From: a virus
Reading direction: 5' to 3' (one strand)
Virus record (IMG/VR): IMGVR_UViG_3300025449_000010
Coordinates: 8,068 to 72,067 of that record
DNA: 64,000 bases
Shown here piece after piece: positions 1 through 57,888 of the stretch; the stretch's first letter is position 1, and the number at the start of each line of letters is the position of its first letter. A program made the position numbers and the translations under genes. A model generated the notes under the pieces. It was not told the DNA's origin. It did no database searches and saw only the letters and a list, made by a program, of their open reading frames with translations.

Positions 1-3000
1 ATTTCATATATCTGAGATGAGGTTAATCCCAGAGATACTGCTGCCATTTCAAATGCATAATTTTCATAGTTAACAGGCATATTGTCAAACTGCTGTTGAC
101 TGCTAACTAACTGCATACCAACATGTAATCCGGCTACAAAAGATTCAGCAAACATATCTTGCATGCTGCCCGTACTCAGTGCCCTATCGTTTTCACCTGT
201 TTTAGCGCTGCTAATTATTATCTTATTTAAAGTTTCGATAAATTTAGTCTGAGCGCCATTATCTCCTGCTAATACGGCTGCTAAATCTATACCTCCTCTG
301 GCTTGATTGAATACTTCAAATAGGGGATTAGAAGTAATATTCAGCCTATTTAACTTATTAATACCGCCTCGAAGAAAGGATTCACTGTCTTGTCGGGATG
401 CCACTCTAATATTTCTCAATATCTCTGGAGCATCATCTATTTCCCCATTAATATCTGTAATATTCTCACCGTACCTATGCAATGCTTCAGATATTTTTTT
501 CGCATATTCCTCAGATCTATCCTTATCGTTATCTTCGCCATAGCCAGTGAATGATTCTATACCAAAAGTCAACAGCATTGCGGCTGCAACTCTCTTAGCA
601 CCCAATGCCGATATACCTTCAGTAAGTTCAGCTACGCCTTCTTCATGTCTAAGTAACTGGGCTCCATGTCCAGGCATATAGGCTTTAAAAGAAGTTATGT
701 TAGCTATGCCATGTATTTGATGAGCCTGTATTCCTCTACTACCCTCTACTGCGCTTCTTAGAATACCAAAGCCATCTCTACTCTTACCTAGCCTGCCTTC
801 TCTCTGACTTCTATTGTATTCTGAAGCCCTATATTCAAATCCTTCTACATCAAACATCTGCACAACAGATTTAAATAGTCCAAAGTTGGCTTCCTGACGA
901 TCTCCAGATACCAGCAACGAAGATCTAATAGAAACATTACGAACTACAGTTGCAGAATTAGAACTATCTCCAGATGTTCCTAGTCCTGTTTTGATTTCTA
1001 TAGAATTGTTGTGATAGGATATACTGACCCTAGCTCCCAGCGTAGCTTCAGTAATACTACTAGATCCAGAGACAGCCTTATCCTTAATACCTTCGAGTAG
1101 TTTAATTAATTTATCACTACCGATACTAGAGCTATTTCTATTTTGATCTGTAGATGCAGCCACGGCACTGGCAGCATTGTCAACAATACCTCTAACCTGC
1201 TGTGCACTGAGGGTATTTACTATATTACTTCCCTTCCTGACTAGGTATGCTTCACCTGTATGTGGATCTATAGAGACAATATCGCCAATTCCCAGGTTCA
1301 AGTTAGCCATACTAAAGTCATTCATCAGACCGTAGCTCTTAACCTTCCTATTCTGAATATTGATATTTCCATATCTAGTGGGTACTACTTCTTCCCCGCT
1401 ATCTGTATTAATTTTCCTGCCAAATCCGGCATTAGCATAGTAAGTGGCATCATGCAGGTACCCGCCAAGCCTGAGTAACATAATAGGTTGATCTTCCCAT
1501 CTGTAACCATCCCTATCAGTTATTATCGGAGCACCAGTCATAGATGTACCGTCAAGCTGATCTCTAGTTACCGCCCATGCTCTGAGTAAATGCTTCTTCT
1601 GTTTATCATCAAATAAATCTCTATATTCATCTCCATTCAGTTTTGCCTTCATATTTTCATAAATTTTCAACTGAGAAGGAGCCATAAGGGAACGAATATC
1701 AGAATCAAACTGATAACCCATTGTCATCATATGTGGAAAGTAACCACCAAATAACAGAGCAGCTGTAGCTTCTCTTTCACTCGTTCGCCCATCATCGCCA
1801 AATAATTCAGTTCTAAAGTTTTTTCTAATATTTTCTATATAGTTATCAGCCCTGCTTCTATCTTTGGCATCAAAGCTATTAAGTAGGTTTATATAATGAG
1901 TATATTCCGCACTGAGTGCAACTTTAGATTTAGTGCCCATAGCATTACGTATCCTCTGAGCAAACTGAAACTGCTTATCTTTCTTACCAGTGCGAGTTAT
2001 TAATAATCTATCTTTATTAACTAATGCTGTCTGATTACTTGCTACGACCGAATTATAACTATTAATGGCTAAATTTTTCTGACTCTCTAAAAATTCATTT
2101 CCTAAATTAGCTACACCAGCGATGTCACTGTAATAGTCACTCTCAGTAAATTGAGAGACATCATTACTATCCCTATCTCCATCTATTATGTATCCAATAC
2201 CAATTGCCTCCAATGCTTCCCAATTGTTCAGTAGGGATAACTCCTGCATACGAGATCCAGTAGCAGTGGAATAGTATTCCATAGTAGTGTTAGTAATAGC
2301 AGAAGCCAGAGCATAAAATCCGGTGCCGCCATACTTTGTAGGATCAAATATCATCGGACTCAAGACAGAGGACATACTGTATAGATTGGAAATCCCTACT
2401 TCAGCTGAGCCTCTACTTCTCTCTAAAAAGGATTTATTAGCATCGTTATATTCGCTACGAGAAATAGTATAGTGAGCCTGAGAATTAGTTCCTAATCCTA
2501 ATTCAGCAAATGGAATTGTATTAATTGAAACATGCTGATTAATCATTTCATTAACATCAACTCTATCGGATAGACCATGAGCCATCAGAGCAAATACATC
2601 AGATAGAACATGCCCCTTAGCTCTCTCTTCATTGGTATTTAATCCTAAAATTTTGCCCAGGGTATTACTGAAAGTGTCTAGATTAACAGAACCCCCAACA
2701 GTCTTAGGATTAAACTGATCTATTGTCAGATTAAATAGTTCTATAATACTATCAAGAGACTCTCTTCTGGTGCTTCCATAGTTAGCATTAAGTCCTCTGG
2801 TCAGTTCTACTGTATTTTTGACAACATCATAGAGATCTGTCATATGAGGATTCCTAGAAGCTCTTAATCTCTCTCTAACTGATATGACATTTGTCCTTGC
2901 TTCTTCAAAAGTTTTGTAATAACCCTTCTCAACCCATTTTCTAGCATATTCATCTACATATCTATCCTCATTTACTCTACTAGGTAAGGCACTATTATCC

Positions 3001-6000
3001 AGAGCCTGAGTCATTTTACCGCCATACTCGGTTAACAGTATAAGAGTATTTCTAGCCTCGAGTAGAAATTTTTTAACATCCTGGTTTTTAATTTCTACTG
3101 CATCTTGAGCTTTTTTACTGGGATCTATAAAATCTGCAATCATATCCAGTGCAGCATCATGATCTTTAAAATTCTTATGAACCCAAAATACTCCAGGATT
3201 CCTACTATCTATATTTGTATCTACTATTTCTTCTCTGTTTTTAATAAGATGCATTTCAGATCCAGTCTTCGATGACTTAACCTGAACACCATAGGTTTTA
3301 CCTTGATAATCATAAATTACATCTATCTTGCTGTTGACATCGCCTTTCGTATTTTCATCTAATTTTCTTACATTACTAATAACCTTACTAAATCTAGGAT
3401 CCTGAAGATATTCTACAAACCTATTGACAGCATTATCGCCTCCACTGGAATTGTAATTTGTACCAGCATCTTCAGAGAGATAACTTTTATGACTAGTTAC
3501 CTCAACTGGCTTACCATATGCTCCAGCTAACCCATTATCGAGAACTTTACCTTTGATAGGGGTGTCATCAGCTCCAATTAGATTTTTATGGAATCCAAGA
3601 GTAGCCTCTAATCTATTTTCTAATTTTCCTCTCTCAATAGGACTAGAAGAACCCATACCCAGATTAGAAAGAAAATTAACTGTCAAGTCTCTGATAAACC
3701 TACTTCTCTCAGAGATGTCATCCATACTATTGACATTATTAATGTACTGAGCAGGACTAGCTATTGATTTCCTATAGTTGTATTCCAACACATTACCTAA
3801 AATAGCCATAACACCGGTCTGAGCACTGTTGAGATACAGTTCATTACCCATACCTGATTTAACAGCACCGAAAGGTGTAGCAAAATTACCAGCATCCTTA
3901 CTAGCTATTACGCTACCTCTATAGACTCTACTCTCGTTAGTTAATACTATGGTGCCTTCTAGATTAGTATTTTCAGTGGCATTAGATCTTGCCTCAGTTG
4001 AAGAATTTAAAATTGTGTAACTTAAATTCTTATTGCCTATTTTGACACTAAAGCTATCTGTACCACCAGACTCCAGAGAACTATTAAGACTAAGCTCTAC
4101 TCCACCTAAATTATTAAAAGTGTAACTTGTCCTATCCTTATTCACCTTCATGTTGTAAGGATTTACAGCAGGACTATACCCCTCTGAACCATATTTTCCA
4201 TATTCATGAAATGCTTTTTCATATTCTGCCAGTCTATCCTCCATAGTGGCTCTATGTCCTAATGCCTCAGATACCCTATTGAAGAGTTCTATATCTGTAA
4301 CACTGCTTCTCTTTAACTGTTCAATTAATATATTAAAAGCAGTTTTAACACTCTCGGTATTTCTAATTTGCTTCAATATATCGCCCTTCATATTCTGAGG
4401 CTGATCTATTGCTCCCATGAAACTGCGTGGAACACTTTCTTCCTGAAAAAACCTATCTCTCTGCTCCTGTCCCCAGCCCAGAGCTTCACTGAAACCTCTA
4501 CTTACGAGATTATGTAGGGACTGACTATGTACCTTAGCAACTTCAGGTAACATATCTCGGTTGCCTAAGACATTGTAGCCAGCATTTGCTGGATTAAATC
4601 TAGAAGCATAGTCTGGATTAAGTGAAACCTCATTGAGCTCTAAAGATAGTTTCTGTTTATACTCCATGTAGGCTTCATGGCTATTAAAATCAGATTCAGT
4701 CAATAACTCCATAGAAAAGGGAGTAAAGTTGCTTGAACCTATATTACTGGCAATAGTAACTATGTTATTGTTATTATCATATTCATACAGGGAATATGCC
4801 TTGGCATGTTGTCTGGGAACTGAGGCTTCCTGCACATTTCCACTAGATATAGCCAGCAGAGTTCTTAGGGTATCTCTAACATGTTGTGTAGAATTTAAAC
4901 CCGTTTCTTCGTATTTGGCTATAGAACCCTGACCAAATATATGTTCATACACTTCAAATCCAGCTCGATGAGAGACACCTCCCTCCATAATGCTAGTTAA
5001 TATATCTTCAGCATATGTACTTGTAGAAGCGTATTTCTGTTTAATCATACGCATGTAACCCAGCAAGTTGCCGTTATATTCCTGATTAACCTTACTATCA
5101 GGAGCAGAATTCATCTTACTTATAAGGGGATTGAGTACCTGTTCAGCAAAATTTCGGATATCTACTGCAACAGTTAATCTTCCCTCAATTAAACTGTTAA
5201 GAGTTTTTTCCTGTAACCTGGCGTATCTCTGAGCCAGGTCATTATCTTTCAGGTATCTCTGCATATTCTGATCGTATAGACCAAATTCACTGGTAAAGGC
5301 GCCGCCTTCTCTATCTCTAAGTAGACTAGTGCCCTGTAATAGTAAAGTCTGGTCTAACATCATAATCATGCGGGCAGACTCATTTACACTTTTTTTAAAT
5401 TTATTATTAGCAGAATCTACTCCATAGGTATAGTCAGATAGATAGCTCAAAGCACTATCTAAATGTTCATAGACTCCTCGCATATCGGTTGTTTCTTTAC
5501 CGCTATCAATATCTTTATCAGCAGCAGTGCGTAGATTATTAAAATTGTCTCTAACCTCATCGCGATCAGCTGAGTAACCAGTAAAATCGCTCTTAGCAAT
5601 CTTACGTCTCTGCGTATAGAGAATATTCTCCATTTCCATAGCACTTCTCTTAGTTTCTGCTAACTTAGATAGTCCAGGATCTCCGTTATACTCATCTTCA
5701 ATATCTTCAATAGTTTTATTTATTTCATGTTCAGTACGAAACCTGGCAATAGATACTAGCTCAAAGTTACTGCCAGATAATTCAAAATCCCTACCTACTG
5801 GCTCAGTTAGGTTCATTGACCCCAGTATAGATACGCCACCGATGAGATCGTCATCTGTAAAATTTTCAGAATCCTCCCTGAATGTCTCATCTACCATCAA
5901 CTTAAGGTGAGAACGATCATTAGCAAATTTAGTAGCAATTCTCTCATGAGCATCGTAATGATTAGATCCCCTTCTCACGAGAGCATGCTTCATTGACTGT

Positions 6001-7076
6001 AATCTGCCAGCAGTAGTTAAGTTTCCACCTAAGATGGCTAAATTAGTATTGTTATCATCATCACTATCGCTAGGAGTAGCTAGAGTCACATGAGCGCTAA
6101 AATTTACATCAGTAGCAGTTCTAGCCGTAAGGTAATCGAGTGCAGTCTCATTCTGTAACTGAAATATATCTATATATAGCCTGGTCTTACCTGCTCTTAT
6201 GCCACCAGCCTGACTAGAAATAATATCTGATTTATTACCCATCATCAGCAGGGCAGTGCCAATTCCAGGACGTATTTCAGTAGGTGAAGGCTCAGTTATA
6301 TTAAGAAGTCTGGCTGCAGAATCTAAACCAACAGGATCCATCATGGTGTTGTTTAAATAACTGTTTGCCCTGGGATCTCCAAGTAGCTGCATACCAGTAT
6401 TGATAGATGCAGCATTGAGATCGGCATAGAGCATCTTAGACTGCGCCTGTATAGCTAAATTACCTTCTTCCCAAAGATCTGTATTCCTATTACCAGATAC
6501 TATACCTGCGCCAAGCCCGCCAGAAGTCCATGGATTAGATACTGCAAAAAATAGAGAACGCGCATCTGCATCAGAGCCAAGACCTAATCTACCCGATACA
6601 ACTTTCAAGATGTCATAGGTCTGAGCTGTCGGTTTAGATAGTCTATTGAGATCTGTATCTATAGCTGTATAGGTAATAGCATTATCAATACTCTGTAGAC
6701 CATCTACACTGCTAATTTCACCAGTACTCAGCTTATCTTCGTAATTTTGAGCCGCCTGAATATACAGATCCTGATTAGGATTATTAGAATCAGATGCAGC
6801 TTCTAATAAATCAGCGTAGGTTTCTATGCCATCTCCCGCCTCAGGAAGGTACTTGTTAATCAGTTTGCCAGAGACTGCGCCAAAAAAGAATCTCTTACCG
6901 CCCGTTAAACCCTGTTCAGCTAAAAAAGCATCAGATAAATACTGATTTTTCGCATTAACCCGCAACAGGTTAAATTTCTGCTGCATATTATAGTTCTGAA
7001 CAAGTAGCAACCCATTGTCACTAGATCCATCCCTATAAAAAGCTCCCGGTTGCCAAGTACTATTACTATCTGACAC
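1..7076 (-). CDS. Giant (>2358 aa, 3'-truncated by window edge) multidomain protein: two PLD-superfamily motifs, PD-(D/E)xK-like nuclease motif, possible RNAP beta-like DPBB
   Basis: GTG at 7076 preceded by TAGGTAAACT; translates MSDSNSTWQPGAFYRDG... Every segment I translated in this frame was open, down to ...YAFEMAAVSLGLTSSQIYE at the edge. An internal stop would have produced a long listed ORF and none is listed. Motifs: HLKLMVDE..GSMN (5909-5811), HAK..IGSSNFT (4808-4722), KIDV..YGVQVKS (~3330-3272). Confidence 0.88.
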   Translation of the reverse strand, partial: MSDSNSTWQPGAFYRDGSSDNGLLLVQNYNMQQKFNLLRVNAKNQYLSDAFLAEQGLTGGKRFFFGAVSGKLINKYLPEAGDGIETYADLLEAASDSNNPNQDLYIQAAQNYEDKLSTGEISSVDGLQSIDNAITYTAIDTDLNRLSKPTAQTYDILKVVSGRLGLGSDADARSLFFAVSNPWTSGGLGAGIVSGNRNTDLWEEGNLAIQAQSKMLYADLNAASINTGMQLLGDPRANSYLNNTMMDPVGLDSAARLLNITEPSPTEIRPGIGTALLMMGNKSDIISSQAGGIRAGKTRLYIDIFQLQNETALDYLTARTATDVNFSAHVTLATPSDSDDDNNTNLAILGGNLTTAGRLQSMKHALVRRGSNHYDAHERIATKFANDRSHLKLMVDETFREDSENFTDDDLIGGVSILGSMNLTEPVGRDFELSGSNFELVSIARFRTEHEINKTIEDIEDEYNGDPGLSKLAETKRSAMEMENILYTQRRKIAKSDFTGYSADRDEVRDNFNNLRTAADKDIDSGKETTDMRGVYEHLDSALSYLSDYTYGVDSANNKFKKSVNESARMIMMLDQTLLLQGTSLLRDREGGAFTSEFGLYDQNMQRYLKDNDLAQRYARLQEKTLNSLIEGRLTVAVDIRNFAEQVLNPLISKMNSAPDSKVNQEYNGNLLGYMRMIKQKYASTSTYAEDILTSIMEGGVSHRAGFEVYEHIFGQGSIAKYEETGLNSTQHVRDTLRTLLAISSGNVQEASVPRQHAKAYSLYEYDNNNNIVTIASNIGSSNFTPFSMELLTESDFNSHEAYMEYKQKLSLELNEVSLNPDYASRFNPANAGYNVLGNRDMLPEVAKVHSQSLHNLVSRGFSEALGWGQEQRDRFFQEESVPRSFMGAIDQPQNMKGDILKQIRNTESVKTAFNILIEQLKRSSVTDIELFNRVSEALGHRATMEDRLAEYEKAFHEYGKYGSEGYSPAVNPYNMKVNKDRTSYTFNNLGGVELSLNSSLESGGTDSFSVKIGNKNLSYTILNSSTEARSNATENTNLEGTIVLTNESRVYRGSVIASKDAGNFATPFGAVKSGMGNELYLNSAQTGVMAILGNVLEYNYRKSIASPAQYINNVNSMDDISERSRFIRDLTVNFLSNLGMGSSSPIERGKLENRLEATLGFHKNLIGADDTPIKGKVLDNGLAGAYGKPVEVTSHKSYLSEDAGTNYNSSGGDNAVNRFVEYLQDPRFSKVISNVRKLDENTKGDVNSKIDVIYDYQGKTYGVQVKSSKTGSEMHLIKNREEIVDTNIDSRNPGVFWVHKNFKDHDAALDMIADFIDPSKKAQDAVEIKNQDVKKFLLEARNTLILLTEYGGKMTQALDNSALPSRVNEDRYVDEYARKWVEKGYYKTFEEARTNVISVRERLRASRNPHMTDLYDVVKNTVELTRGLNANYGSTRRESLDSIIELFNLTIDQFNPKTVGGSVNLDTFSNTLGKILGLNTNEERAKGHVLSDVFALMAHGLSDRVDVNEMINQHVSINTIPFAELGLGTNSQAHYTISRSEYNDANKSFLERSRGSAEVGISNLYSMSSVLSPMIFDPTKYGGTGFYALASAITNTTMEYYSTATGSRMQELSLLNNWEALEAIGIGYIIDGDRDSNDVSQFTESDYYSDIAGVANLGNEFLESQKNLAINSYNSVVASNQTALVNKDRLLITRTGKKDKQFQFAQRIRNAMGTKSKVALSAEYTHYINLLNSFDAKDRSRADNYIENIRKNFRTELFGDDGRTSEREATAALLFGGYFPHMMTMGYQFDSDIRSLMAPSQLKIYENMKAKLNGDEYRDLFDDKQKKHLLRAWAVTRDQLDGTSMTGAPIITDRDGYRWEDQPIMLLRLGGYLHDATYYANAGFGRKINTDSGEEVVPTRYGNINIQNRKVKSYGLMNDFSMANLNLGIGDIVSIDPHTGEAYLVRKGSNIVNTLSAQQVRGIVDNAASAVAASTDQNRNSSSIGSDKLIKLLEGIKDKAVSGSSSITEATLGARVSISYHNNSIEIKTGLGTSGDSSNSATVVRNVSIRSSLLVSGDRQEANFGLFKSVVQMFDVEGFEYRASEYNRSQREGRLGKSRDGFGILRSAVEGSRGIQAHQIHGIANITSFKAYMPGHGAQLLRHEEGVAELTEGISALGAKRVAAAMLLTFGIESFTGYGEDNDKDRSEEYAKKISEALHRYGENITDINGEIDDAPEILRNIRVASRQDSESFLRGGINKLNRLNITSNPLFEVFNQARGGIDLAAVLAGDNGAQTKFIETLNKIIISSAKTGENDRALSTGSMQDMFAESFVAGLHVGMQLVSSQQQFDNMPVNYENYAFEMAAVSLGLTSSQIYE

Positions 7077-8088: not shown

Positions 8089-9597
8089 ATGGACGAATCT
8101 CCCCAAGAGCAGAACAAGGTCTCGCACCTAGTTACCCAACCACCTGTAGTAACCTCACCTACCTATAGGAGGTTCCCACCTCGGTTAGGTCAATTCGGAC
8201 GCTCCATGTCCTATACCTCTATTGGAGAGAGTTTCAGAGCCACCACCAAGCCCTCCCAGCAACAGCTGGCTGTCTGGGATGAGGCACGCCAGAGAGAACC
8301 CACCATACAGGCTGGGTTCAATATCATCACCAGGAACCTGCTGGCCACCATCGGAGACTATGTGCATCCCAACAGGGACATACAGAACTTCGTCAGGGCC
8401 AATATAGCCCAGGGACTGCATAGATGGATAGAGGCGGCACTGATATCCAGCATGTGGAGTGGGTTTTCAGTCGGCGAGGTGATCTGGCAGTACCGCGATG
8501 GGCCCAACGGCAAGCAGGTCTGGATCAATGAGATCATGCCGTACCATCCCATCCAGATCTTCTTCATCGTCAATGACTTCGGACAACTCACCCATGGCGA
8601 GAGGGTCACCTACTCCAGCTACAAGTCTGGTATCTGGGTACCCCGTCCTGCCAGCCAGTATACCCGGAAGATCAACACAGACACACATGGCATCCATGCC
8701 AGACTGCCACGCAGCAAGGCCTTCTACACCAAGATAGGACATGACCAGGGTAACCCCTACGGTCACAGTCCCCTCTTCCCTATCATGCGTTACCATCTCT
8801 TCAAGGAGGTCTTCATGGATCTCATGAGTAATGCCCTGGATAGGTATTCCATGCCCCTACTCTACGTCAAGGTACCCAACCAGACCACGCAGGAGGCCAC
8901 CACTGATGCTGATGGCAGCACCCGCATGCTGACACTGCAGGAGGTAGTGGCACGTGAGATACAGGAGATAGAGCATGACAGCTTCCTGGTATTCACCCAG
9001 ACCGATGCCCGCAATAATCCCATCGAGATAGGTGCACTGACCACAGGTAATAACTACGGGGAGGCATTCAACCATGCCATCGACCTCTGCGATAAGAACA
9101 TGATGCTGGGTCTCAATATACCCAATCTCCTGTTCCATGAGCAGGGCAGACAGCTGGGTGGGGGCGGCGCCAGTGCCATCCAGTGGGAGGTATTCAACCA
9201 CTTCATCGGCTCGCTATATGATGTGACTGTGGGTGCATTCATAGACCAGGTGGTACGTCAGCTGATAGCCTACAACTTCGATGTCAACACCGTACCTGAT
9301 GCTGGTGAACTCGGCTACATGCAGCGTAAGCCCATCAGACCCGTGGATCAGAAGACCACTGCTGATGTCTATTCAATACTGACCCAGATAGGTGCTGTCA
9401 ATACCACCAATGAGACCGACTTCGCTCATATCAGGGCAGTCATGGGTCTACCAGACCGTGATCACCAGGGCTACGATGAGCCTCACCTGCCAGGCATGAC
9501 TCCAGCGGTAGGGGCGGCGCCGTCCCAGACCCGCACCAGGAAGAAGGCAACCACCAGGGATGGGCAGGAGCCAACCGACAAGTCAGTCCAGAAATAG
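8089..9597 (+). CDS. Portal protein (Mu gp29/DUF935-like)
   Basis: 502 aa; 'WSGFSVGEVIW' and 'GNPYGHSPL...FK..M...LDRYSMP' patterns; upstream of protease and capsid genes. Confidence 0.85.
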   Translation: MDESPQEQNKVSHLVTQPPVVTSPTYRRFPPRLGQFGRSMSYTSIGESFRATTKPSQQQLAVWDEARQREPTIQAGFNIITRNLLATIGDYVHPNRDIQNFVRANIAQGLHRWIEAALISSMWSGFSVGEVIWQYRDGPNGKQVWINEIMPYHPIQIFFIVNDFGQLTHGERVTYSSYKSGIWVPRPASQYTRKINTDTHGIHARLPRSKAFYTKIGHDQGNPYGHSPLFPIMRYHLFKEVFMDLMSNALDRYSMPLLYVKVPNQTTQEATTDADGSTRMLTLQEVVAREIQEIEHDSFLVFTQTDARNNPIEIGALTTGNNYGEAFNHAIDLCDKNMMLGLNIPNLLFHEQGRQLGGGGASAIQWEVFNHFIGSLYDVTVGAFIDQVVRQLIAYNFDVNTVPDAGELGYMQRKPIRPVDQKTTADVYSILTQIGAVNTTNETDFAHIRAVMGLPDRDHQGYDEPHLPGMTPAVGAAPSQTRTRKKATTRDGQEPTDKSVQK

Positions 9598-19301: not shown

Positions 19302-21965
19302 ATGGCTACAATTCCTTCAGTAAATTTTATAGAGCAGGCTTCGTCTACCCAACCAATTCAAACTGGTGTTCGTAACAGAGTTCTAGTAATTGGTGAGTTT
19401 GACAGAGGCCCCCTTGGTCCTACTTATATTGGCGGCGCTTCTGACTTTGCTGTCCGATATGGAGCTGACCCCACTAACAACGGTTCTCTAGGTGTACAGG
19501 CAATACTAGATCAAGGAGCAGTCAATATAGCTGCCCTACGTGTAATAGGTAATGAAAGACGTGCCTATGGTCAATTTAACATTACAGGAGTTGCCACCAG
19601 TGCTCCAGGCACAAACTATGATAGTCAGCAATTAAGTCTATTAGCCAGCACTATTGGCAATGTAGTTCCTAACTTAAACACAGTACTTCGTACTGATATT
19701 GAAGCCTCAGGACGTTATACAGGGTCTACCAGTAGCGTCTATAACTTCTACGTAGCCACTAACTTCAACTCCACAGCAGTGACTGGCTATGTTCTCAAGG
19801 CTGCAGTTGGATCTACTCCAGCAGTAACTGTCAATATTCCTGCCAATAGCTGGCTGTTGACCTATGTAAATAATGATCCAGACGCAGGTCAACTCAGCTC
19901 CAGTGATTTTGTAGGTGCAACTAACTATATCCTAGTTACAGCTCCCAGTAATCTGGCCTCAGCTCCACTGAGTGTAGCCACCACCGTATATGGAGTTAAT
20001 GCCACCTATCCTACACCGACTTCTGGAGGTATTGATGGGCTTGGCTTAACGTTGGGATTCAGTATTCAGACTTCTCTAGATCTAGTTCAAGGTCAGATAT
20101 TCAGCGTAACTGCATCTAATTTTAATTCACTATTCACCCCTATTAAAGTAGTTCCTAACACTACTAATGAGGTTCTTTTTAACCTTATTCAGTCTAATTG
20201 GCAGAATACTGGACCAATTGGAAATATATCTCTAGCATCCAGTAGTCATAGCAATGGTTACATATATGCAAGTAACAGATATCCAGGACAATATGGTAAC
20301 AACCTGAGCTACAGTCTTCAATTTGCAGTTCCAGATGGGACAGTTAAAGCCTCAGTTACATCTACCTATACAGCAGCAACTGGTAACACTGCAGCTAGCT
20401 ATACATTGACATTGGCTAATACATCTCTAACTCAATATATCCGACCAGGAGCTACTGTCTCAGATGGCGGCACTAATATTAACATTAATGCTCCGACAGT
20501 TACCTCAATTAACTCTGCAACTGGAGTAATTACACTCTCTGGAGGATTGACTGCCTCCATAAGCACAGCCTTCGCAGTTACCTTCACCAACACCAGCGGA
20601 CTTAGCATTGCACAGGTTAATGCTAATAATAACGGTTTTTCAACTTTTACCAGCGGTATTGACGGACCTAAATATGCAACTAGAGACCTATACAATATTC
20701 AGGGTATAAAACTTATAACCTTGATAGCAGTATCTCCTGGTATATGGGCTAATGACCTAAGCATATCCATTACTAACGCCTCTAATCCAGGACAATTTAT
20801 TATTAACATTGTTGATAACAATGCTAATAATTTTAATCCACCACTAAATGCAGAATCATTTACAGTTAATATCAGTAATTTTAGTCAAACTGATGGTAGC
20901 TTAATTGATTTAAATGGTTCTAATTACATCAGAGGATTCTTTGTTCCCTATTTAACTAACGGAACTAATTATACTGCATCTCTGATATACGACTGGCCTC
21001 AGAGATTATTACCGCCAATAGCTTCAATCAGAGATACTCTAGATTTAGCTAATCCTGTAAACTATGGAAAAACTATTCTTACCAATTTTAATTTACAAAA
21101 CGGTAATAATGGTCCTATTATTCAGAACAGCGATTACTACGCGGCCATAGATCAGTCCTATAAAATACCTGTTCATATCATAGTAACTCCAGGCGTTACA
21201 GATATAGGGGTACAGTCGGCATTGATTGCGCATTGTGAAGCTAGCACTGAATTAGAGCAGCTACGTGTATGTATATTACAGGCTCCTAGATTTTTAAAAC
21301 CTGAGCAAGCCAAGGCGATTACCTCTTCATTATCCTCAGCTCGCGCTGTAATGGTAGTAGGTTGGGGTACCTATAGAGGTTCTGCTCTAGATTACGGTAA
21401 CTACAATTTACCTTTAGATTCTGTCTTAGCAGGTAGATTAAGTGCGTTGCCCTTTTACGTTAATACAGCAGCTAGAAGATCTTCAGGTCCAATTGGCTCT
21501 ATATATGCCTGCGATACGGATCCATATGCGACCTATAGCCAACTACAGGTCTACGCAGCAGCTAATTTAGAAGTAGTAGCAAGAGATCCCAGTACTCAAG
21601 GTTATTATTTCTTCACAGGAGCATCGCTCTCTCCTAGTCCAGATTTAAACCACATAAGTTATCGAAGAGCCTATGACATAATCAGAATGGATTTGTATGA
21701 TAACCTGCAAACATACAAATCAGAACCTCTGACATCTACTCTGGTAACTTTGGTAACTGGAGCAATCAATGCCTATATGAACAATAAGCTTAATTCTGGA
21801 CAAATAGCTTATTTCAATAATAGTAGTACTAGCGTCAACGCAGGTAATACTCCAAATACATTGGCAGTTTCATTTAGTTTTGCACCGTTAGGTTCTGCTG
21901 ATTCTATTACGGTGTATATACAACGTGATGCCAGTGGTCAGTTTATAAATTCATCTTCAAGATAG
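19302..21965 (+). CDS. Contractile tail sheath protein
   Basis: N-terminal P.V...E....I......IGEFDRGP.GP; SPG.WAN; C-terminal ISYRR..D.I and 'VSFSFAP...ADSI.V'; large internal insertions. Confidence 0.92.
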   Translation: MATIPSVNFIEQASSTQPIQTGVRNRVLVIGEFDRGPLGPTYIGGASDFAVRYGADPTNNGSLGVQAILDQGAVNIAALRVIGNERRAYGQFNITGVATSAPGTNYDSQQLSLLASTIGNVVPNLNTVLRTDIEASGRYTGSTSSVYNFYVATNFNSTAVTGYVLKAAVGSTPAVTVNIPANSWLLTYVNNDPDAGQLSSSDFVGATNYILVTAPSNLASAPLSVATTVYGVNATYPTPTSGGIDGLGLTLGFSIQTSLDLVQGQIFSVTASNFNSLFTPIKVVPNTTNEVLFNLIQSNWQNTGPIGNISLASSSHSNGYIYASNRYPGQYGNNLSYSLQFAVPDGTVKASVTSTYTAATGNTAASYTLTLANTSLTQYIRPGATVSDGGTNININAPTVTSINSATGVITLSGGLTASISTAFAVTFTNTSGLSIAQVNANNNGFSTFTSGIDGPKYATRDLYNIQGIKLITLIAVSPGIWANDLSISITNASNPGQFIINIVDNNANNFNPPLNAESFTVNISNFSQTDGSLIDLNGSNYIRGFFVPYLTNGTNYTASLIYDWPQRLLPPIASIRDTLDLANPVNYGKTILTNFNLQNGNNGPIIQNSDYYAAIDQSYKIPVHIIVTPGVTDIGVQSALIAHCEASTELEQLRVCILQAPRFLKPEQAKAITSSLSSARAVMVVGWGTYRGSALDYGNYNLPLDSVLAGRLSALPFYVNTAARRSSGPIGSIYACDTDPYATYSQLQVYAAANLEVVARDPSTQGYYFFTGASLSPSPDLNHISYRRAYDIIRMDLYDNLQTYKSEPLTSTLVTLVTGAINAYMNNKLNSGQIAYFNNSSTSVNAGNTPNTLAVSFSFAPLGSADSITVYIQRDASGQFINSSSR

Positions 21966-27034: not shown

Positions 27035-27627
27035 TGCCTCTTAATTCTGTATACAATCCCATGCACTGGGGCAATTCCACTCCCAGAAAATGTCAGCCGG
27101 AGATAGTGGTATTACATGAAACCAATGTGTCCCTGGATGCTGCCCTGCAGTATCTGCGTAGACCTATCAATACCGGCTACCACTACATAGTTGCAGAATC
27201 CGGTGCCGCCCACCTACTCTGTCCAATAGATCGTCTCATATACGCCGCAACACCCTCTCAACATTCCAGATACGGCAGACACACAGACCTGGTGGCTGTG
27301 CATATAGCACTGGAGACCAGACGGGAGCGTGGCTACAGTGCCGCCCAATATCAGACCCTGTCAGACCTCCTCAATGCCCTGCAGCTCCCATCTGTATTCC
27401 ACAGAGATATACATACTGGCATAGAGCCCCGGCTAGACCCCAGAGACTTTGACTACTCCCTACTGCCAACCAGTGACAATACTGACACAGGAATATACCT
27501 GACTCCTGAGCTAGATGCCATCCTCTATTCAGTCACAGGCACGCATGACCTGAGCTATCTAGACAGTCCAGATATTCCAGTTAAACTAATCCCAGTCAGA
27601 GAATATGCCCTTAACCGATCTAGGTAA
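27034..27627 (+). CDS. Amidase_2 (AmpD/PGRP-like) N-acetylmuramoyl-L-alanine amidase
   Basis: IVVLHET, GYHYIV..G, H..I...R.DP. Confidence 0.82.
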   Translation: MPLNSVYNPMHWGNSTPRKCQPEIVVLHETNVSLDAALQYLRRPINTGYHYIVAESGAAHLLCPIDRLIYAATPSQHSRYGRHTDLVAVHIALETRRERGYSAAQYQTLSDLLNALQLPSVFHRDIHTGIEPRLDPRDFDYSLLPTSDNTDTGIYLTPELDAILYSVTGTHDLSYLDSPDIPVKLIPVREYALNRSR

Positions 27628-28993
27628 TGCCGTCATCAATAAGGCAGCTCAGCTCCCCTCCACCTGCCCTAACGGCGGACAGGGTCAGATGAAATTACCT
27701 GCAGACCAGGTAGAACAGGTCAGGTCTAACATCAATGCCCTGGCTGATAAGTATGGATGCTCAGCAGATGGACTGACTGCCATCATCGTCAATGAATGTA
27801 GTTTCGACTACAGGGAATGGGGTGGGAGCGGGGGCGTCTACTTCGGTTATTTCCAGTGGTGTTCATCCAACAGCGGTGACTGTGCAGGTGAATGGGTCAG
27901 GACTGGACTAGCCCGACTGGGACAGAGTCAGCAGATAAATAGTATAGCCACAGTCAACGGTGCCGCCCAGACTGCCCCAGGAGGCCCATGTGACAACTAC
28001 CTGAGCTACAATATAGCGCAGTGTAAGGGAATCAATACCGCAGATATTGCCAGCATATACCTATTAATTCTCTCACCAGCCTACTGTAACTACGGCGATA
28101 CCACGCCACTGCCAATAGCGGGACAGCAGTCACCTAACCTATACGACAGTAATGGGCATATAACCAAGGTTCAGATCAGAGCTGCCCTGGAGAAGGGTGC
28201 TCAGGACTTCACTAAAAGCACAGCATCTCTGGGAACTGGGTCTGGAGTGAATAACGGTGCAGGTACCTACTCCAGTGGGAACAGTGCTGGCTCTAGCTCT
28301 ATTCCAGTTATATACTTCAATCCCACCCCAGTAGATCCCTACTACCCCACCAAGGTAATCTGGCAGGGAAGATCCGTCAACAAGATAGTCAGGGCAGCAG
28401 GTGGAGGTAATCTGACCTATCCCGGCGCCGCCCCTCCATCCAGTCCAACTGCAGGACAGGGTAACTCCACATCACTGGGTAAGAATATACCTGCAATGCC
28501 AGCAGGCTTCGTACCCACTCCTGCAACCAAGGGCAGCTTCGGAGATCCCCTACCCCAGCCCTACATAGTGACCAGTGAGTTTGGCGTGAACCGGGGAACC
28601 CATATACATGCAGGATTAGACCTGGTACCATCATCAAGAAATATATTCGAGACACCGGTACTGAGCGCCACATCAGGTGTAGTAATCAGTGCAGGCTATG
28701 AAGCGGACTACACTAATCCCAGAGGAACAACAAGATGCGATGCCATGTATGCTGGAAAGGGCTTCGGTAGCTTAATTACTGTATACACCTACAATACAGC
28801 TCCAGGTGCTCCTGCCTATATACTGTATGGACATGTTCTCAGATGGGATGTGAAGGCTGGAGATATAGTAACTAAGGGACAACCAATAGGACTCGTAGGC
28901 TGTGAGGGCGATTCCACTGGAGCTCATCTACACTTCCAGGTCAATGATTCCAACAATACCCCCATCAATCCCCATAACTACCTGTCGACATGA
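27605..28993 (+). CDS. Lysozyme-like (SLT-type) domain + M23 metallopeptidase
   Basis: AII.NE.SF...GYFQ at the N-terminus; HAGLD (HxxxD), YGH and STGAHLHF (HxH) at the C-terminus. Confidence 0.82.
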   Translation: MPLTDLGNAVINKAAQLPSTCPNGGQGQMKLPADQVEQVRSNINALADKYGCSADGLTAIIVNECSFDYREWGGSGGVYFGYFQWCSSNSGDCAGEWVRTGLARLGQSQQINSIATVNGAAQTAPGGPCDNYLSYNIAQCKGINTADIASIYLLILSPAYCNYGDTTPLPIAGQQSPNLYDSNGHITKVQIRAALEKGAQDFTKSTASLGTGSGVNNGAGTYSSGNSAGSSSIPVIYFNPTPVDPYYPTKVIWQGRSVNKIVRAAGGGNLTYPGAAPPSSPTAGQGNSTSLGKNIPAMPAGFVPTPATKGSFGDPLPQPYIVTSEFGVNRGTHIHAGLDLVPSSRNIFETPVLSATSGVVISAGYEADYTNPRGTTRCDAMYAGKGFGSLITVYTYNTAPGAPAYILYGHVLRWDVKAGDIVTKGQPIGLVGCEGDSTGAHLHFQVNDSNNTPINPHNYLST

Positions 28994-29610
28994 GATCAGC
29001 AGTAACTAACTATGCCGCTTTCTACAGTAATGATCCCAGCTATGACATGGATCACCTGGTCAGCCTGTCTGGGGGCGGCGCCGCCCAGGCATCCCTATTC
29101 AGTCAGCTCCTATCCTGGAATCTGACAGATGGGAATACAGGCTACCAGGACACCAATGCAGCCAAGGTGATGGCCATCACCCTGCCTCGTCAGATGAGAA
29201 TAGCCATGCTGGGACTGTTGACCATGGTGGAGCTGAATATAGTAGCCAATAACTCCTCCATATCCTATATAGGCAGCACACCTGATCAACTCTATATACT
29301 CCAGGAGTCTATTCTCAATGAGATACCTAACCCGATAGTATCCAATATGCTCTCCGATGTAGGAAGTAACTATACAGAGCTAATGAACTATCTGTCTCTG
29401 GCGGCGCCGCCCACCACCTCTACCCCATACAGCGCAGTTAATAGCCTATTTCAACAGGCCAATTACAGTAATGATACCTATATGGGCATGGCAGTTAACA
29501 GTGATAATGTCACAGCAGCAGGACTACTCTGGGAATATTTTAACTACCCCAATCAGTTACTGCCCACTGTTCAGAACATAGTATCCACATATATCAGCAA
29601 TACCCGATGA
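28990..29610 (+). CDS. Hypothetical (tail/baseplate region) protein
   Basis: 206-aa ORF with ATGA overlaps on both sides. Confidence 0.6.
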   Translation: MRSAVTNYAAFYSNDPSYDMDHLVSLSGGGAAQASLFSQLLSWNLTDGNTGYQDTNAAKVMAITLPRQMRIAMLGLLTMVELNIVANNSSISYIGSTPDQLYILQESILNEIPNPIVSNMLSDVGSNYTELMNYLSLAAPPTTSTPYSAVNSLFQQANYSNDTYMGMAVNSDNVTAAGLLWEYFNYPNQLLPTVQNIVSTYISNTR

Positions 29611-39768: not shown

Positions 39769-42700
39769 ATGCCTGTCAACACCTACCTCTCCAATCCAAT
39801 CTATCAGGATAAATATACCCGAGCCAGCGGCTGGAAGAAACTACTATTCACTCCAGGGGGTACCCTGCAGGCTGGGGAACTGATAGAGCTGCAGTCCATG
39901 CTGGCAGATCAGAACAGTCAGCTGATGGAGGCCATGTACGCCAATGGAGCTATTCTGAATGGGGTGGTGGGAACTGTCAGCGGCAATACGCTGAAGTTTT
40001 CAGCTGGTCAGGTATACTTCTCAGGCTATGTACTGGATATTCCCAGTCAATCTATTACACTGCCCGATACCTTATCTCACAATGTATACCTACTAGTTAC
40101 TGAGACCATCACTGAACAGGTATCGAATAATACACTCAACACCTCTGGATCTGCCGATATACTGGTCTGGAAACCATCAATTCAGCTAGGCAGCGGAGAT
40201 GCACTGCTAGGTACGATCAATAATGGGATATATGTGGCAGCCTCACCTCGTGGACTGATAGATGACCGCATAGGATCATTTCTCCATGATCTCTACGGTA
40301 ATTATCAGGTCTCAGGACTAGACACCACAGTAGTCCAGAGCAGTACCCCCACATCCACATCTGTAACCTCATCCGATATAGCACCCCTGCAGTCAGAACT
40401 GGCAGCACTCAATACCTACATTACACAGCTGCAGAATCTGGCCGGCACTAACCTCAATAGCACCACACTGGTATCCAGCCTGAGCACTGAGATAACCCAG
40501 AGACAGGCAGATGCCAATGCCCTCAGGATCAGGATAGGTGCCCTGCAGTCAGGAGGTACAACACAGCAGATAATCCGGAACAGCGCCAACTTCGATATTA
40601 ATCCAGGTACCGCCTATATTGGAGGGAAGCTGATTACAACCACTGGCACATCCCTGGTAGTCCCGATGGATAATATAGGCTCAGCTGCTGTGACTGGAGC
40701 TCAATACAGTGGAGTCAGTGCCGCCAGTCAGATAATTAACTTCACACAGACGACTGCTCCCAAGCCTGCCATCAATTTTACCATAACATCTAGTAATGGT
40801 GTACTGACCAGTGCCGCCTCTCTCTATGCAGGAGACGTGGTCTATGCAGTATCCCCCGCAATCAGTCCTCTGACGGTGGGAGTCCCCTATACCATCTCAT
40901 ACCTGAGTAGCGGTACTCTGTCCCTAGCTCAGAGCGGACTGCCTGCCCTGAAACTACCCAGCGGTGTATATTCGCTGAATAGACCTGCCCAGAACTACCT
41001 GCAGTTGTCCTTCGCAGGACTCCCATCAGACCCCATTATCTCAGCTATCACCATTGCGACCACGGTACAGGGAATACCAGATGCCCTGCAGGATATAGTC
41101 AATCTACTGAACGGTCAGACCAGCAGCGCAACTGTCACCTCATCTGCCACAGATGGTCGCAGCACTGCGGGTATTATAGCCTTGCTGAATGAGCATATGA
41201 CGCTATCGCTCAATGGTAATGCCCTGGAGATAACAGCCAAGCCCGTACCTAATCTGCAAAATATAACACTGAATATCACTACAGCAGGCGGCACCACCTC
41301 TGACTGGACATCTGGTAACCTATTCAGAACTGTACAGGCATCCTATACCCTGGGATTCCAGCCAGTAATTGAGGTGACCCAGGTACTGGGGGTAGTTCAG
41401 GTAACCGGTCAGGCAATGACCAGGGGAGCGCTATCTGGTGGTAGAGATTCCATAGGCAGCACCAGCCTGGTGGAACTACTGAGAGTATGGCAGGGCACTA
41501 CAGTATATGTCCTGGGGGTGGACTATACCCTGTACAATACCACCGATATAGACTGGACACGTTCACTCACCTCAGGAAATCAACCTGCACTGGGTTCGAC
41601 CTACTACATCAGCTATACGCAGAATATTCCCATCACCGACTATACACTGAGTAATGGGGCAATTAAGTTTAACAGGCAGGTACCCATATCCTTCACTGTC
41701 AACTACAGTTATTCCCTGAATGTAGCTGGACTGATCACCCTGGATGCCAGCGGTAATTTCAACTATCTACTATCAGCACCCTCAGCCCAGCCCACAGCAC
41801 CCGCCACTCCTGACAATGTACTGGCAGTTGCCCGATTCAACATGAACAGCAGCAGTGTTACAGTAACTGCTGCCACTGAGAGTAAGGCTCTGAGCTACGT
41901 ACAACTCAATCAGCTGGCAGATACAGTTCAGGCAACTGCCAGTCAACTGGCCTCTCTGCAGTTACAGATCAGCAGTGGTAACAGCAATGGACTACTACCG
42001 ATAGTGGCAGACCTATTCCATGACCTCTCGCAGCTGGACTTCTCCAGTGATAGCTTTACTGCCAGCCTGTCACCTATCACTCAGACAATCACACAGGGCA
42101 TACAGCATGCCACTATACCTCTCAGAGCATCAGGTTCGTCAGCCAATCTCAGCAACACTGCTGTAACTAATAGTCAGAATACACGGAGTATATCTCAGCC
42201 CCTGAGTGCCAGCTATGCCAGTCAGGTTCGCATATACTCTACCGATGCCAATCAATTCATCTGCTCAACTGATGGATTCTATCCCTGTGACCAGATATCT
42301 CCTCAGACCAGTGATATATCATCTCAGGTTCTCTCCGCTGTCACCAATCTCTGGGGCGGCGCCGCCCTCTCCATAGCAGATGGAATAACACAGGGAATAC
42401 CCTACCGTAATTTCTCTGCCAGTAGGGGCTATATTACCTCGCTATCTCAGGCAACTGCACCCAGAACAGTGGTCAACATACGTCTGGAGGAACTGCATAA
42501 TCAGCCCTACAGCTTCACATGGCGTGGAAACCCTGTCTCCCTGGGCAGTGCCCTATACGGTAGCTTCGATATCATCACCAATCCAACACTGGACGTAGTG
42601 ACTGGGTTCTTCAAATCCAATGGACTGTTACCATCATCCAGCAGTGGCTGGAGCATCAGTGATGGGGTCATTGCAGGTAAATTCTACATACCTGCAGGTA

Positions 42701-56508: not shown

Positions 56509-57888
56509 ATGTCCGGCACCCCAGGTACCCCGATTGATTGGCAAGAACCCTACCTGAATCCGCTATATCAGGATGGCGGTAGCTACGGTGATCCAGTGTA
56601 TGTAGACACCACTGAACCTGGCGTAGACCCAGCCCTGCTACAGGGACGCGAGAGTGGCATATACATAGATGACATAGCTGACGTAGACTACATTCAGATC
56701 TATATACCTCAGAACGACAGGCACGTGGGGCGAGCTATCCATCAGGAACTCCATGTGACCGGACAGAACTATGTCTATGTCCAGGTGCCGCCCACTGTGG
56801 GCTATGGTGTTAACTCCTGCTACATAGTCGAATACTATAAATACATAGCTCCAGTGCCGCTCAACTACACCATGTCTGGCACCAACTCAGTCACCATCAA
56901 CGGTACCCCCATCACCAGACAACTGAGTCGCTCAATACAGCTGCCAGGTAGATCCAGAAAGGAGCTACTCTACAGTCAGTACTGGTTGGTACCCACCTTC
57001 AAGGGCTATAGGTATCTACGACACAGGGACACCATACTGGAACAACGTCTGCCAGACCGTAGACGCAATATAGAGCTGATCATGAATGCCAGCACCTTCA
57101 CCCAGGTCAATGGATCAGATCCCCTGACCAGCGATATTCAGCTCATAGTCAGTGTCATGGCAACTCCAATCACAGCCAGTGCCACCCCAATTATCAGCAA
57201 CGGCATCATCACTGGACTCAGTATAGTGGGAGGTGGCTCTAACTACACCACTGCACCTACCATCACCATCACCAGTGCCACAGGTACGGGAGCCCGTGCA
57301 ACTGCTATTATCACCAGGGGTATAGTAACTGGCTATACAGGACTCGTGGGCGGCACCGGGTACCTGGCAGGCAATACGACTGTCAGCATAGCGCCGCCCA
57401 CCTCCCAGGCAACTGCCACAGTCACAGTCACAGGCGGTGTCATCACAGCCATCACAGTGACCAATGGAGGTGCAGGATACTCCAGTGCCTATCCTCCCAA
57501 CATCAGTTTCACCAGCAGCACCGGAACAGGAGCCAGTGCCACCCTGACTGTGGCTAATGGCAGGATAACAGGCTACACCAACCTGATAGGTGGATACGGC
57601 TATGCAACCGTAACAGCCACCATAGACCCCCCAGGTGTCAATACATACTATGCCCAGACAACAGACTGGGAACGCACTGCAGACGGCATACAGTGGCTGA
57701 CCACGGCGCCGCCCACTCAATATTTGATCATGTACCGTCCATGCTACTACAAGGAAGAAGTAACCTACATTCCTAACTCAACTGAGTTGACAGTAGTCAA
57801 CCACAGACAGCTAATGCCAGAACAACAGCTCTTCAACGGGTTACTCTATAATCCAGCCCTGACATATCCATATCCCTGGATTGGTTAA
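56509..57888 (+). CDS. Virion structural protein with (ATA..GG.IT.I.V..GG.GY..P) repeats
   Basis: About four beta repeats of the type seen in large myophage baseplate/neck proteins (57170-57630). Confidence 0.65.
   Translation: MSGTPGTPIDWQEPYLNPLYQDGGSYGDPVYVDTTEPGVDPALLQGRESGIYIDDIADVDYIQIYIPQNDRHVGRAIHQELHVTGQNYVYVQVPPTVGYGVNSCYIVEYYKYIAPVPLNYTMSGTNSVTINGTPITRQLSRSIQLPGRSRKELLYSQYWLVPTFKGYRYLRHRDTILEQRLPDRRRNIELIMNASTFTQVNGSDPLTSDIQLIVSVMATPITASATPIISNGIITGLSIVGGGSNYTTAPTITITSATGTGARATAIITRGIVTGYTGLVGGTGYLAGNTTVSIAPPTSQATATVTVTGGVITAITVTNGGAGYSSAYPPNISFTSSTGTGASATLTVANGRITGYTNLIGGYGYATVTATIDPPGVNTYYAQTTDWERTADGIQWLTTAPPTQYLIMYRPCYYKEEVTYIPNSTELTVVNHRQLMPEQQLFNGLLYNPALTYPYPWIG

Follow-up and report, generated by a model that had tools for sequence, protein, structure and literature searches.

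A candidate single-chain two-barrel RNA polymerase in a conserved family of giant, cysteine-free proteins of Ma-LMM01-like cyanophages

The 64,000-nucleotide stretch of viral DNA analyzed here (hereafter, the window) comprises bases 8068-72067 of a linear IMG/VR virus record of 72,067 bp (IMGVR_UViG_3300025449_000010; CheckV completeness 45%). Its left edge cuts through a giant open reading frame (ORF) of 4,393 codons, which extends 6.1 kb past that edge, to record base 1965. A sequence-only reading of the window had flagged a segment of this ORF as a beta-like double-psi beta-barrel (DPBB) of a very divergent single-chain RNA polymerase (RNAP). Having followed up this proposal, we regard it as likely that the giant protein contains a two-barrel polymerase catalytic site. 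With somewhat less assurance, we favor the fuller interpretation that it is a very divergent single-chain two-barrel RNAP, probably virion-borne, with an N-terminal PLD-like domain and a beta-like barrel formed by the flagged segment. The proposal stood in one respect, as the catalytic motifs of both halves are present in the right order, but no sequence or profile search names a polymerase and the structural models are of low confidence. The two-barrel fold is at most weakly confirmed. Judged by its motifs the protein would belong to the two-barrel superfamily, whereas judged by curated profiles it would not.

The sequence-only reading had also predicted that the second, DxDGD-bearing barrel of such an enzyme would lie beyond the left edge of the window. 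Extension of the frame into the record revealed the DxDGD motif there, in the in-frame string NLGDYDGD, preceded by YRPQPLGG. The relevant parts of the gene are as follows (positions here and below are those of the window, unless the record is named; aa, amino acids).

3..7076, minus strand: first 2,358 codons of the giant ORF, with a GTG start at 7076 and the frame open off the left edge
Record G000:C1:1965-8069, minus strand: off-window remainder of the giant ORF
Record 5889-6161, off window: candidate beta-prime-like barrel, aa 2995-3085
Within aa 2995-3085, off window: conserved upstream strand motif R3001-P3004-G3006
Record 5919-5933, 2.1 kb left of the window: DYDGD (aa 3071-3075), within NLGDYDGDMVIM (aa 3068-3079)
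aa 3455-3460, off window: conserved block LGK..N
aa 3540-3547, off window: conserved block Q.LRD.IK

DYDGD is the only D-[FYW]-D-G-D string in the 4,393 aa (0.0055 expected from composition), and it has the form of the metal-binding DxDxD (DxDGD) loop of two-barrel RNAPs. All 19 aligned family members, which are 13-23% identical to the present protein, share R3001, D3071, D3073, G3074 and D3075 without exception. The pattern of the family (fRS.P.G, ~60 aa, R.K.L...P.S....LGDFDGD.Y..I) runs parallel, by eye, to that of E. coli beta-prime, in whose sequence (rpoC) NRAPTLH is followed by KAIQLHPLVC..NADFDGDQMAVH. When a 241-column crop of the family alignment was compared by hhalign with a 61-row crop of proteobacterial beta-prime, a match was obtained at P 0.0019 (probability 14%), in which fRSpP is paired with lnRapt and DFDGD with DFDGD; three cross-controls gave P 0.38-0.55. 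In the first hhalign run, with full-length beta-prime, the best local match was DFDGDxxxx (P 0.0059), and comparison of the family with gp96 of Thermus phage P23-45 also paired the R-x-P and DFDGD motifs (P 0.023). After the candidate catalytic barrel, where two-barrel RNAPs have the bridge helix and trigger loop, two invariant blocks (LGK..N and Q.LRD.IK) fall within long helices of a low-confidence model, and their comparison with beta-prime, beta and gp96 was not significant (hhalign P 0.27-0.76; 0.27 for beta-prime and 0.76 for gp96).

The relatives on which these alignments rest had to be reached stepwise. A word-indexed search of a 5.8-billion-protein collection returned three proteins of near length (the protein itself and two others at 64% identity) and none that was shorter, and a scan of IMG/VR with the single protein yielded no relatives. 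The homolog gp080 of phage Ma-LMM01 (YP_851094, 3,562 aa, annotated as 'hypothetical protein') was reached through synteny. This protein, a true homolog whose gene has a matching position and direction with respect to the head genes, is ~22-24% identical overall to the present one and 830 aa shorter, and it carries the same motifs (QRSPPPGN...NLGDFDGD). It was missed by tblastn with the catalytic region (aa 2560-3480), which gave nothing with an E of 1 or less among 50,697 phage records. BLASTP aligned the giant protein with gp080 in four segments, all of them collinear: 277-769 with 164-577 (E 4e-21), 2115-2411 with 1533-1818 (E 5e-5), 2997-3109 with 2473-2568 (E 0.003) and 3445-3571 with 2766-2887 (E 0.003). 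Used as a query in the word-indexed search, gp080 found two proteins. Pattern scans of IMG/VR with alignment queries then confirmed 3, 7, 19 and 5 relatives in successive scans; the same scans of JGI metagenomes gave 4, and none was found by alignment-based scan in 185,579 prokaryote genomes. After removal of duplicates the working set comprised ~20 lineages, whose complete ORFs encode 3,058-4,839 aa and whose contigs measure ~150-250 kb (up to 251 kb).

Together they form a conserved protein family, giant and cysteine-free, whose genes adjoin those for the portal and head in Ma-LMM01-like cyanomyoviruses and related uncultured phages. The present protein (record G000:C1:1965-15143) lacks cysteine altogether over its 4,393 aa, and 19 family members of 1,533-4,839 aa (loci L006, L011-L015, L017, L019, L020, L103, L106, L110, L111, L117, L118 and L120, among others) have 0-1 each, while the cysteine content of the other ORFs of the present phage is 0-2.4%. 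In one Ma-LMM01-like IMG/VR contig (L004:8242-16223) two ORFs, of 649 and 2,012 aa, stand in place of the single giant one, which may reflect a frameshift or an assembly error.

The flagged segment lies within the window, approximately 1,000 aa before the DYDGD site. The peptide strings quoted for it in the sequence-only reading are present in the minus-strand frame at the places given there (669-1484), and the following features were distinguished.

651..1493, minus strand: candidate beta-like (DPBB-B) region, aa 1862-2142
1431-1484, minus strand: IMLLRLGGYLHDATYYAN, aa 1865-1882
1431..1466, minus strand: GGYLHDATYYAN, aa 1871-1882, consensus G.YSD..Y.N, proposed counterpart of beta/Rpb2 GYN.ED
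1266..1289, minus strand: IGDIVSID, aa 1930-1937 (IGDIV, aa 1930-1934, at 1275-1289)
852-935, minus strand: VSIRSSLLVSGDRQEANFGLFKSVVQMF, aa 2048-2075
864..908, minus strand: SGDRQEANFGLFKSV, aa 2057-2071, consensus G.RR.EG...L.KGV, proposed counterpart of beta GDK...RHG.KG
669-716, minus strand: IHGIANITSFKAYMPG, aa 2121-2136
663..716, minus strand: IHGIANITSFKAYMPGHG, aa 2121-2138, consensus i.GL.NP.NLKS.f..HG, proposed counterpart of beta/Rpb2 (D)IV.NP...PSRM.iG(Q/H)

The segment was aligned with 20 relatives at 14-26% identity to the present protein, plus one at 78%. Five residues (N1882, D1937, K2069, F2080 and K2131) do not vary in any of the 20 rows. At least 90% of the rows retain R2060, L2067, G2138 and an Asp that coincides with or adjoins D1876; in an 11-row alignment D1876, D1932, R2060, K2069, K2131 and H2137 are all invariant. 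Since these residues are conserved at such low identity, the flagged strings exceed what chance would produce. The two basic residues of the beta barrel would be represented by R2060 and K2069. Two-barrel polymerases use one aspartate and two basic residues of DPBB1 (PMC9508822), and the conserved acidic/basic set of the flagged segment, as read from the alignment, appears to fit this requirement. D1876 would be the acidic residue of the barrel, in a mapping to GYN.ED made by eye; the beta/Rpb2 motif forms used here were taken in part from the E. coli rpoB/rpoC sequence. The order and spacing claimed for the segment held up by eye, as the three family blocks line up with those of beta, the third fitting beta/Rpb2 best in lineages with an extra residue (NPNNLKSGFFVGHG). 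Profile comparison did not sustain this claim, the flagged region giving P 0.51-0.55 against bacterial beta in hhalign; against gp96, the wrong side of DFDGD was aligned (P 0.04).

The structural matches listed for the segment include RNAP second-largest subunits, the DPBB1 of QDE-1, and RDR2. The AlphaFold2 model of aa 1850-2180 (20 rows) has a beta-rich core built from both ends of the segment and a low-confidence middle; its mean predicted local distance difference test score (pLDDT) is 54.5 and its predicted template modeling score (pTM) 0.48, with 65 residues at pLDDT 70-90. When this model was used to search BFVD, the sole match at E ≤0.001 was the Ma-LMM01 homolog (E 1.4e-6). The best Foldseek match of the model in the PDB (hot-dog thioesterases, E 0.07) was rejected as noise. 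Three coronavirus spike chains (E 0.22-0.53; aa ~2007-2070, window ~870-1060, ~64 columns), which were the only PDB sequence matches of a profile built from the three closest relatives, were taken as chance. Prediction of a complex between the two barrel crops gave run scores of 0.32, 0.00 and 0.00 with no controls folded, and was counted neither way.

According to the interpretation that we favor, the flagged segment (aa ~1862-2142) would form the beta-like barrel, with D1876 or D1937 as its acidic residue and with R2060 and K2069 holding the RNA 3′ end and the incoming nucleoside triphosphate. The region at aa ~2995-3085 would form the beta-prime-like barrel, whose D3071, D3073 and D3075 would bind the catalytic Mg2+; these three aspartates, together with one from the beta-like barrel, would hold two Mg2+ ions. 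The barrels would pack face to face into one active site, as in beta/beta-prime, despite the ~1,000 residues between them. The protein would be packaged in the virion, ejected into the host together with its PLD-like domain, and would there transcribe the first phage genes. Packaging and ejection are suggested by a gene position adjoining those of the portal and head proteins, by the low cysteine content, by a hydrophobic stretch near the C-terminus and by the examples that P23-45, crAss-like phages and N4 provide.

Several observations weigh against a polymerase of this kind. The first is the failure of sequence searches: (i) neither Pfam nor PHROGs named a polymerase in the whole protein (both halves) or in ten overlapping pieces of 200-400 aa, the sub-threshold matches (CorA, FAT, GPW_gp25 and others) being regarded as chance; (ii) RNAP families of Pfam (RNA_pol_Rpb1_2, Rpb2_6, RdRP), at E up to 10, matched neither the present protein nor any of 12 catalytic-region members and 15 flagged-region crops; (iii) the six-frame translation of the record contained no PF00623 match with an E of 10 or less, while this family was matched in 14 of 14 control genomes; (iv) phmmer with aa 2401-3600 against 1.84 billion representatives returned only the protein's own cluster; and (v) among PDB sequences phmmer gave no match at E up to 1 and the profile search nothing relevant, and the ESM Atlas gave no usable match. 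To these must be added the lack of profile similarity between the flagged region and bacterial beta mentioned above.

The structural models are a second weakness. In the model of the flagged segment 148 of 331 residues are under pLDDT 50, and the AlphaFold2 model of aa 2690-3620 (931 aa, 12 rows) failed (mean pLDDT 46.2, pTM 0.27), the catalytic barrel itself being under pLDDT 50.

The third is the distance between the barrels, ~1,000 aa in the present protein and ~980-2,300 aa across the family. Measured from the G.R...K block to DxDGD it is ~980 aa in L117, ~1,610 aa in L017 and ~2,300 aa in L110, and this variation indicates that the spacer takes large lineage-specific insertions; it also contains further conserved blocks. 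If cellular beta and beta-prime are considered as one chain, the same motifs are ~730 residues apart (approximate E. coli numbering), which is nearer to the present ~1,000 than are the compact single-chain enzymes. In gp96 the connector between the barrels comprises only residues 613-679 (PMC10770324) and DFDGD is at 779, and in QDE-1 DPBB1 occupies residues 736-767 and DPBB2 residues 919-1012 (PMC9508822); both spacings are far shorter than that of the present protein.

Finally, published work on these phages points the other way. In a transcriptome study of Ma-LMM01, promoters of the sigma-70 type were predicted in silico for the early, the middle and the late genes (PMC5780444), and MaMV-DH01 is stated to encode no RNA polymerase (PMC9927357). 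The basis of both statements is annotation and in-silico prediction and not inhibitor tests. We found no paper linking Ma-LMM01-like phages to a two-barrel or virion RNAP; the supplementary tables of PMC5780444, PMC9927357 and PMC10770324 were outside the scope of this search and may bear on novelty.

Among the alternatives, the one that survives best, though we consider it unlikely, is that the giant protein is no polymerase at all but a virion component with a PLD domain, either structural or ejected (for instance a tape measure, inner-body or channel-forming protein), in which DYDGD is some other Ca2+/Mg2+ loop and the flagged segment an ordinary beta domain. That family, profile and fold searches all fall short of significance for any polymerase agrees with this explanation, as do the published reports of host-type promoters only in Ma-LMM01 (PMC5780444) and of MaMV-DH01 as a phage without an RNA polymerase (PMC9927357). 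No separate tape-measure gene was recognized with PHROGs among the 29 ORFs scanned, and much of the C-terminal part of the protein (aa 3100-4393), which includes the hydrophobic segment, is helical in a low-confidence prediction. A bare acidic loop, however, would leave unexplained the co-conserved R-x-x-P-x-G strand and the K.L...P.S block, which stand in beta-prime order, and of the four hhalign comparisons that with beta-prime was the only one with a low P. Moreover, a near-identical motif pair occurs in the proven polymerase gp96, which is itself described as a tape measure protein; a tape-measure or ejected role and a polymerase are not mutually exclusive, and such a role of the helical C-terminal third is compatible with the two-barrel interpretation.

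A slightly less probable alternative is that the protein is indeed a two-barrel polymerase with a real DYDGD barrel, while the flagged segment is a separate conserved beta domain (e.g. nucleic-acid- or envelope-binding). The true beta-like barrel would then be closer to the catalytic one; the conserved block at aa ~2690-2900 is one possible site. This block was modeled as helical, with no barrel, albeit in a weak model of low confidence. The flagged segment, for its part, carries the residues expected of a beta-like barrel, with two conserved basic positions and one or two invariant Asp arranged and spaced as in the three beta motifs. Its listed structural matches include the RNAP and QDE-1/RDR2 folds named above, and ~730 residues separate the cellular motifs when both subunits are counted as one chain (E. 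coli numbering).

It is very improbable that the two-barrel core is real and the enzyme something other than a DNA-dependent RNAP (an RNA-dependent polymerase of the QDE-1/RDR kind, a PolD-like DNA polymerase or a primase-like enzyme). Eukaryotic RNA-dependent RNA polymerases also have DxDGD motifs in which the second residue is aromatic, the structural matches listed include QDE-1 and RDR2, and both barrels are shared by PolD (PMC10770324), but all three characterized phage single-chain two-barrel enzymes (phi14:2 gp66, P23-45 gp96 and gp64) are described as transcribing DNA, and the third motif of the flagged segment resembles, by eye, that of beta/Rpb2 and not that of the RNA-dependent enzymes.

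Outside the two candidate barrels, the giant protein has the following features.

5811..5909, minus strand: first PLD-type half-site, H390-x-K392 ... G419-S-M-N422, recognized from sequence; family consensus RSH.K...GSMN.TEP
4728..4814, minus strand: second PLD-type half-site, R755-Q-H757-A-K759 ... G780-S-S-N783, invariant in a 5-row alignment
1935..1982, minus strand: conserved block KDKQFQFAQRIRNAMG, aa 1699-1714, upstream of the flagged barrel; consensus K..QI.QRLKN..G
aa 4259-4282, left of the window, near the C-terminus: hydrophobic segment LFGIITSIAVGVALQVSGA (Kyte-Doolittle 1.84)

The N-terminal part thus contains the two HxK ... GSxN half-sites that define the PLD (HKD) superfamily, and by these motifs the two-HKD PLD-like domain is a separate, putatively enzymatic head. 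Pfam PLDc_2 was detected below its cut-off (19-23 bits vs 27) in the N-termini of 4 of 10 relatives and was absent in the present protein; in BFVD/UniProt the Ma-LMM01 homolog is named 'PLD phosphodiesterase domain-containing protein'. The segment LFGIITSIAVGVALQVSGA is the only strongly hydrophobic one in the giant protein, and its region is 86-90% identical to the closest relatives.

The neighborhood of the giant gene was annotated with PHROGs.

8089-9597: portal
Right of the giant gene: prohead protease-like ORFs
13319-14650: major head protein
19302-21965: tail sheath
Right of the giant gene: baseplate proteins
27605-28993: M23-type peptidase, an ORF separate from the giant gene
54066-56507: large terminase

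The giant gene lies upstream of the portal gene, on the strand opposite to it, and diverges from the portal, protease, major head, sheath and baseplate genes. Between the major head protein and its counterparts in 10 phage records of 162-182 kb, which are those of Ma-LMM01, MaMV phages and Microcoleus phage My-WqHQDG, identity is 43.5-44.2%. This places the virus among the contractile-tailed cyanophages of the Ma-LMM01 (Fukuivirus) kind. The two small ORFs located between the giant gene and the portal gene yielded one PHROGs family of unknown function and no chaperone family. The position of the gene is unlike that of P23-45 gp96, which occupies the tape-measure site after the tail tube and chaperone genes. 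Proteins of the gp96 type also include metallopeptidase and transmembrane parts, whereas here the M23-type peptidase is encoded apart and the giant protein has one hydrophobic segment.

The G+C content of the giant gene is 38.4%, versus 45.4% in the rest of the record and ~50% in the structural genes. In 18 relatives the gene is within ~8 points of its flanks (mostly 1-4), which indicates that the low G+C is peculiar to the present genome; it may be a mark of mosaic origin.

A second giant ORF (57888-63998, plus strand) runs off the right end of the window. It encodes at least 2,037 aa, is cysteine-free and has 33% G+C. No Pfam or PHROG family was found in it and its sole DxDxD-type string is DIDSD at aa 1883, so that there is no sign of a second polymerase.

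The octamer GYGCCGCC is present in 57 copies on both strands, versus 0.85 expected (≤4 in 100 shuffles), for example at 2323, 9602, 29074-29085 and 42355-42366, with just 2 copies within the 7 kb of the giant gene. A role as promoter for the putative polymerase was rejected, because both strands carry the octamer and most copies fall within genes.

Microcystis aeruginosa forms toxic blooms, and Ma-LMM01 and its relatives, which help to control them, serve as the model lytic phages of this species. If the two-barrel interpretation is true, it would overturn the published view that they depend solely on the host polymerase (PMC5780444, PMC9927357). It would also alter how these phages are understood to express their early genes, take over the host and resist its defenses, in a cultured system in which it can be tested. 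We tentatively put forward, with a little less than even confidence, a broader proposal: that Ma-LMM01-like and a wider range of uncultured phages (contigs of ~150-250 kb) harbor an undescribed lineage of single-chain cell-type RNAPs, with barrels ~1,000-2,300 residues apart, in cysteine-free proteins of 3,000-4,800 aa with a PLD nuclease head, which would be packaged, ejected through the contractile tail and start transcription. This would be the third or fourth independent single-chain two-barrel lineage in giant virion proteins, after the crAss-like phages and P23-45, and an unusual one in its long barrel spacer and in beta-like motifs nearer those of the multisubunit enzymes. Methodologically, searching for DxDGD paired with R-x-x-P and checking both for invariance in distant relatives makes it possible to detect such enzymes when Pfam, PHROGs, HMMER and AlphaFold2 with shallow alignments do not.

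Compared with known systems, the giant protein shares with cellular beta/beta-prime (E. coli rpoB/rpoC), of which jumbo phages have split or fused versions, five blocks that match in order and approximate spacing (GYN.ED, GDK..K, NP..PSRM.iGQ, NRAPTLH and NADFDGD). It differs in being a single chain with no Pfam domain of either subunit, and its profile match is weak to beta-prime (14%) and nil to beta. We know of no alpha- or omega-like partners for it.

The virion RNAP of coliphage N4 (~3,500 aa) has a T7-like catalytic domain of unrelated fold. It offers an analogy of strategy only, as a giant protein that is packaged, ejected and starts early transcription (PMC13434306). Phage phi14:2 gp66 (crAss-like) and YonO of Bacillus phage SPbeta are single-chain two-barrel RNAPs, as is proposed here, and gp66 is described as part of a large virion-packaged protein recognized by its DFDxD motif. 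Their motif is DFDxD and not DxDGD, and phage groups and hosts differ. Neither protein is among the structural matches listed for the flagged segment. The homolog gp080, in which the motifs are the same, is neither annotated nor discussed as a polymerase in the accessible parts of PMC5780444 and PMC9927357.

By its proposed working principle the giant protein comes closest to P23-45 gp96, and next to phi14:2 gp66. P23-45 gp96 is a proven virion two-barrel RNAP fused to a tape measure protein, in which DFDGD is described as the only sequence clue, with otherwise no detectable similarity to cellular RNAPs (PMC10770324). It is giant and cysteine-free (NC_009803; 0 Cys in 5,002 aa) like the present protein, and its FRNPVMG, followed after ~50 aa by GVDFDGD, parallels the present Y/F-R-[PS]-x-P-x-G ... 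L-G-D-[YF]-D-G-D. The two have no BLAST-level similarity (in the tblastn search with aa 2560-3480 described above), and they differ in architecture: gp96 belongs to a siphovirus, is encoded in the tape-measure position and has an N-terminal polymerase (active fragment 327-1124) with barrels close together, whereas the present protein comes from a myovirus in which its gene diverges from the neighboring portal gene, and its motifs lie at aa ~1870-3075, behind an N-terminal PLD-like domain. If it is a polymerase, it would thus be distinguished from the described single-chain enzymes by its occurrence in a cyanobacterial myovirus, by the combination of a PLD head with polymerase motifs in the middle of the protein, by the spacing of its barrels and by its beta-type motifs.

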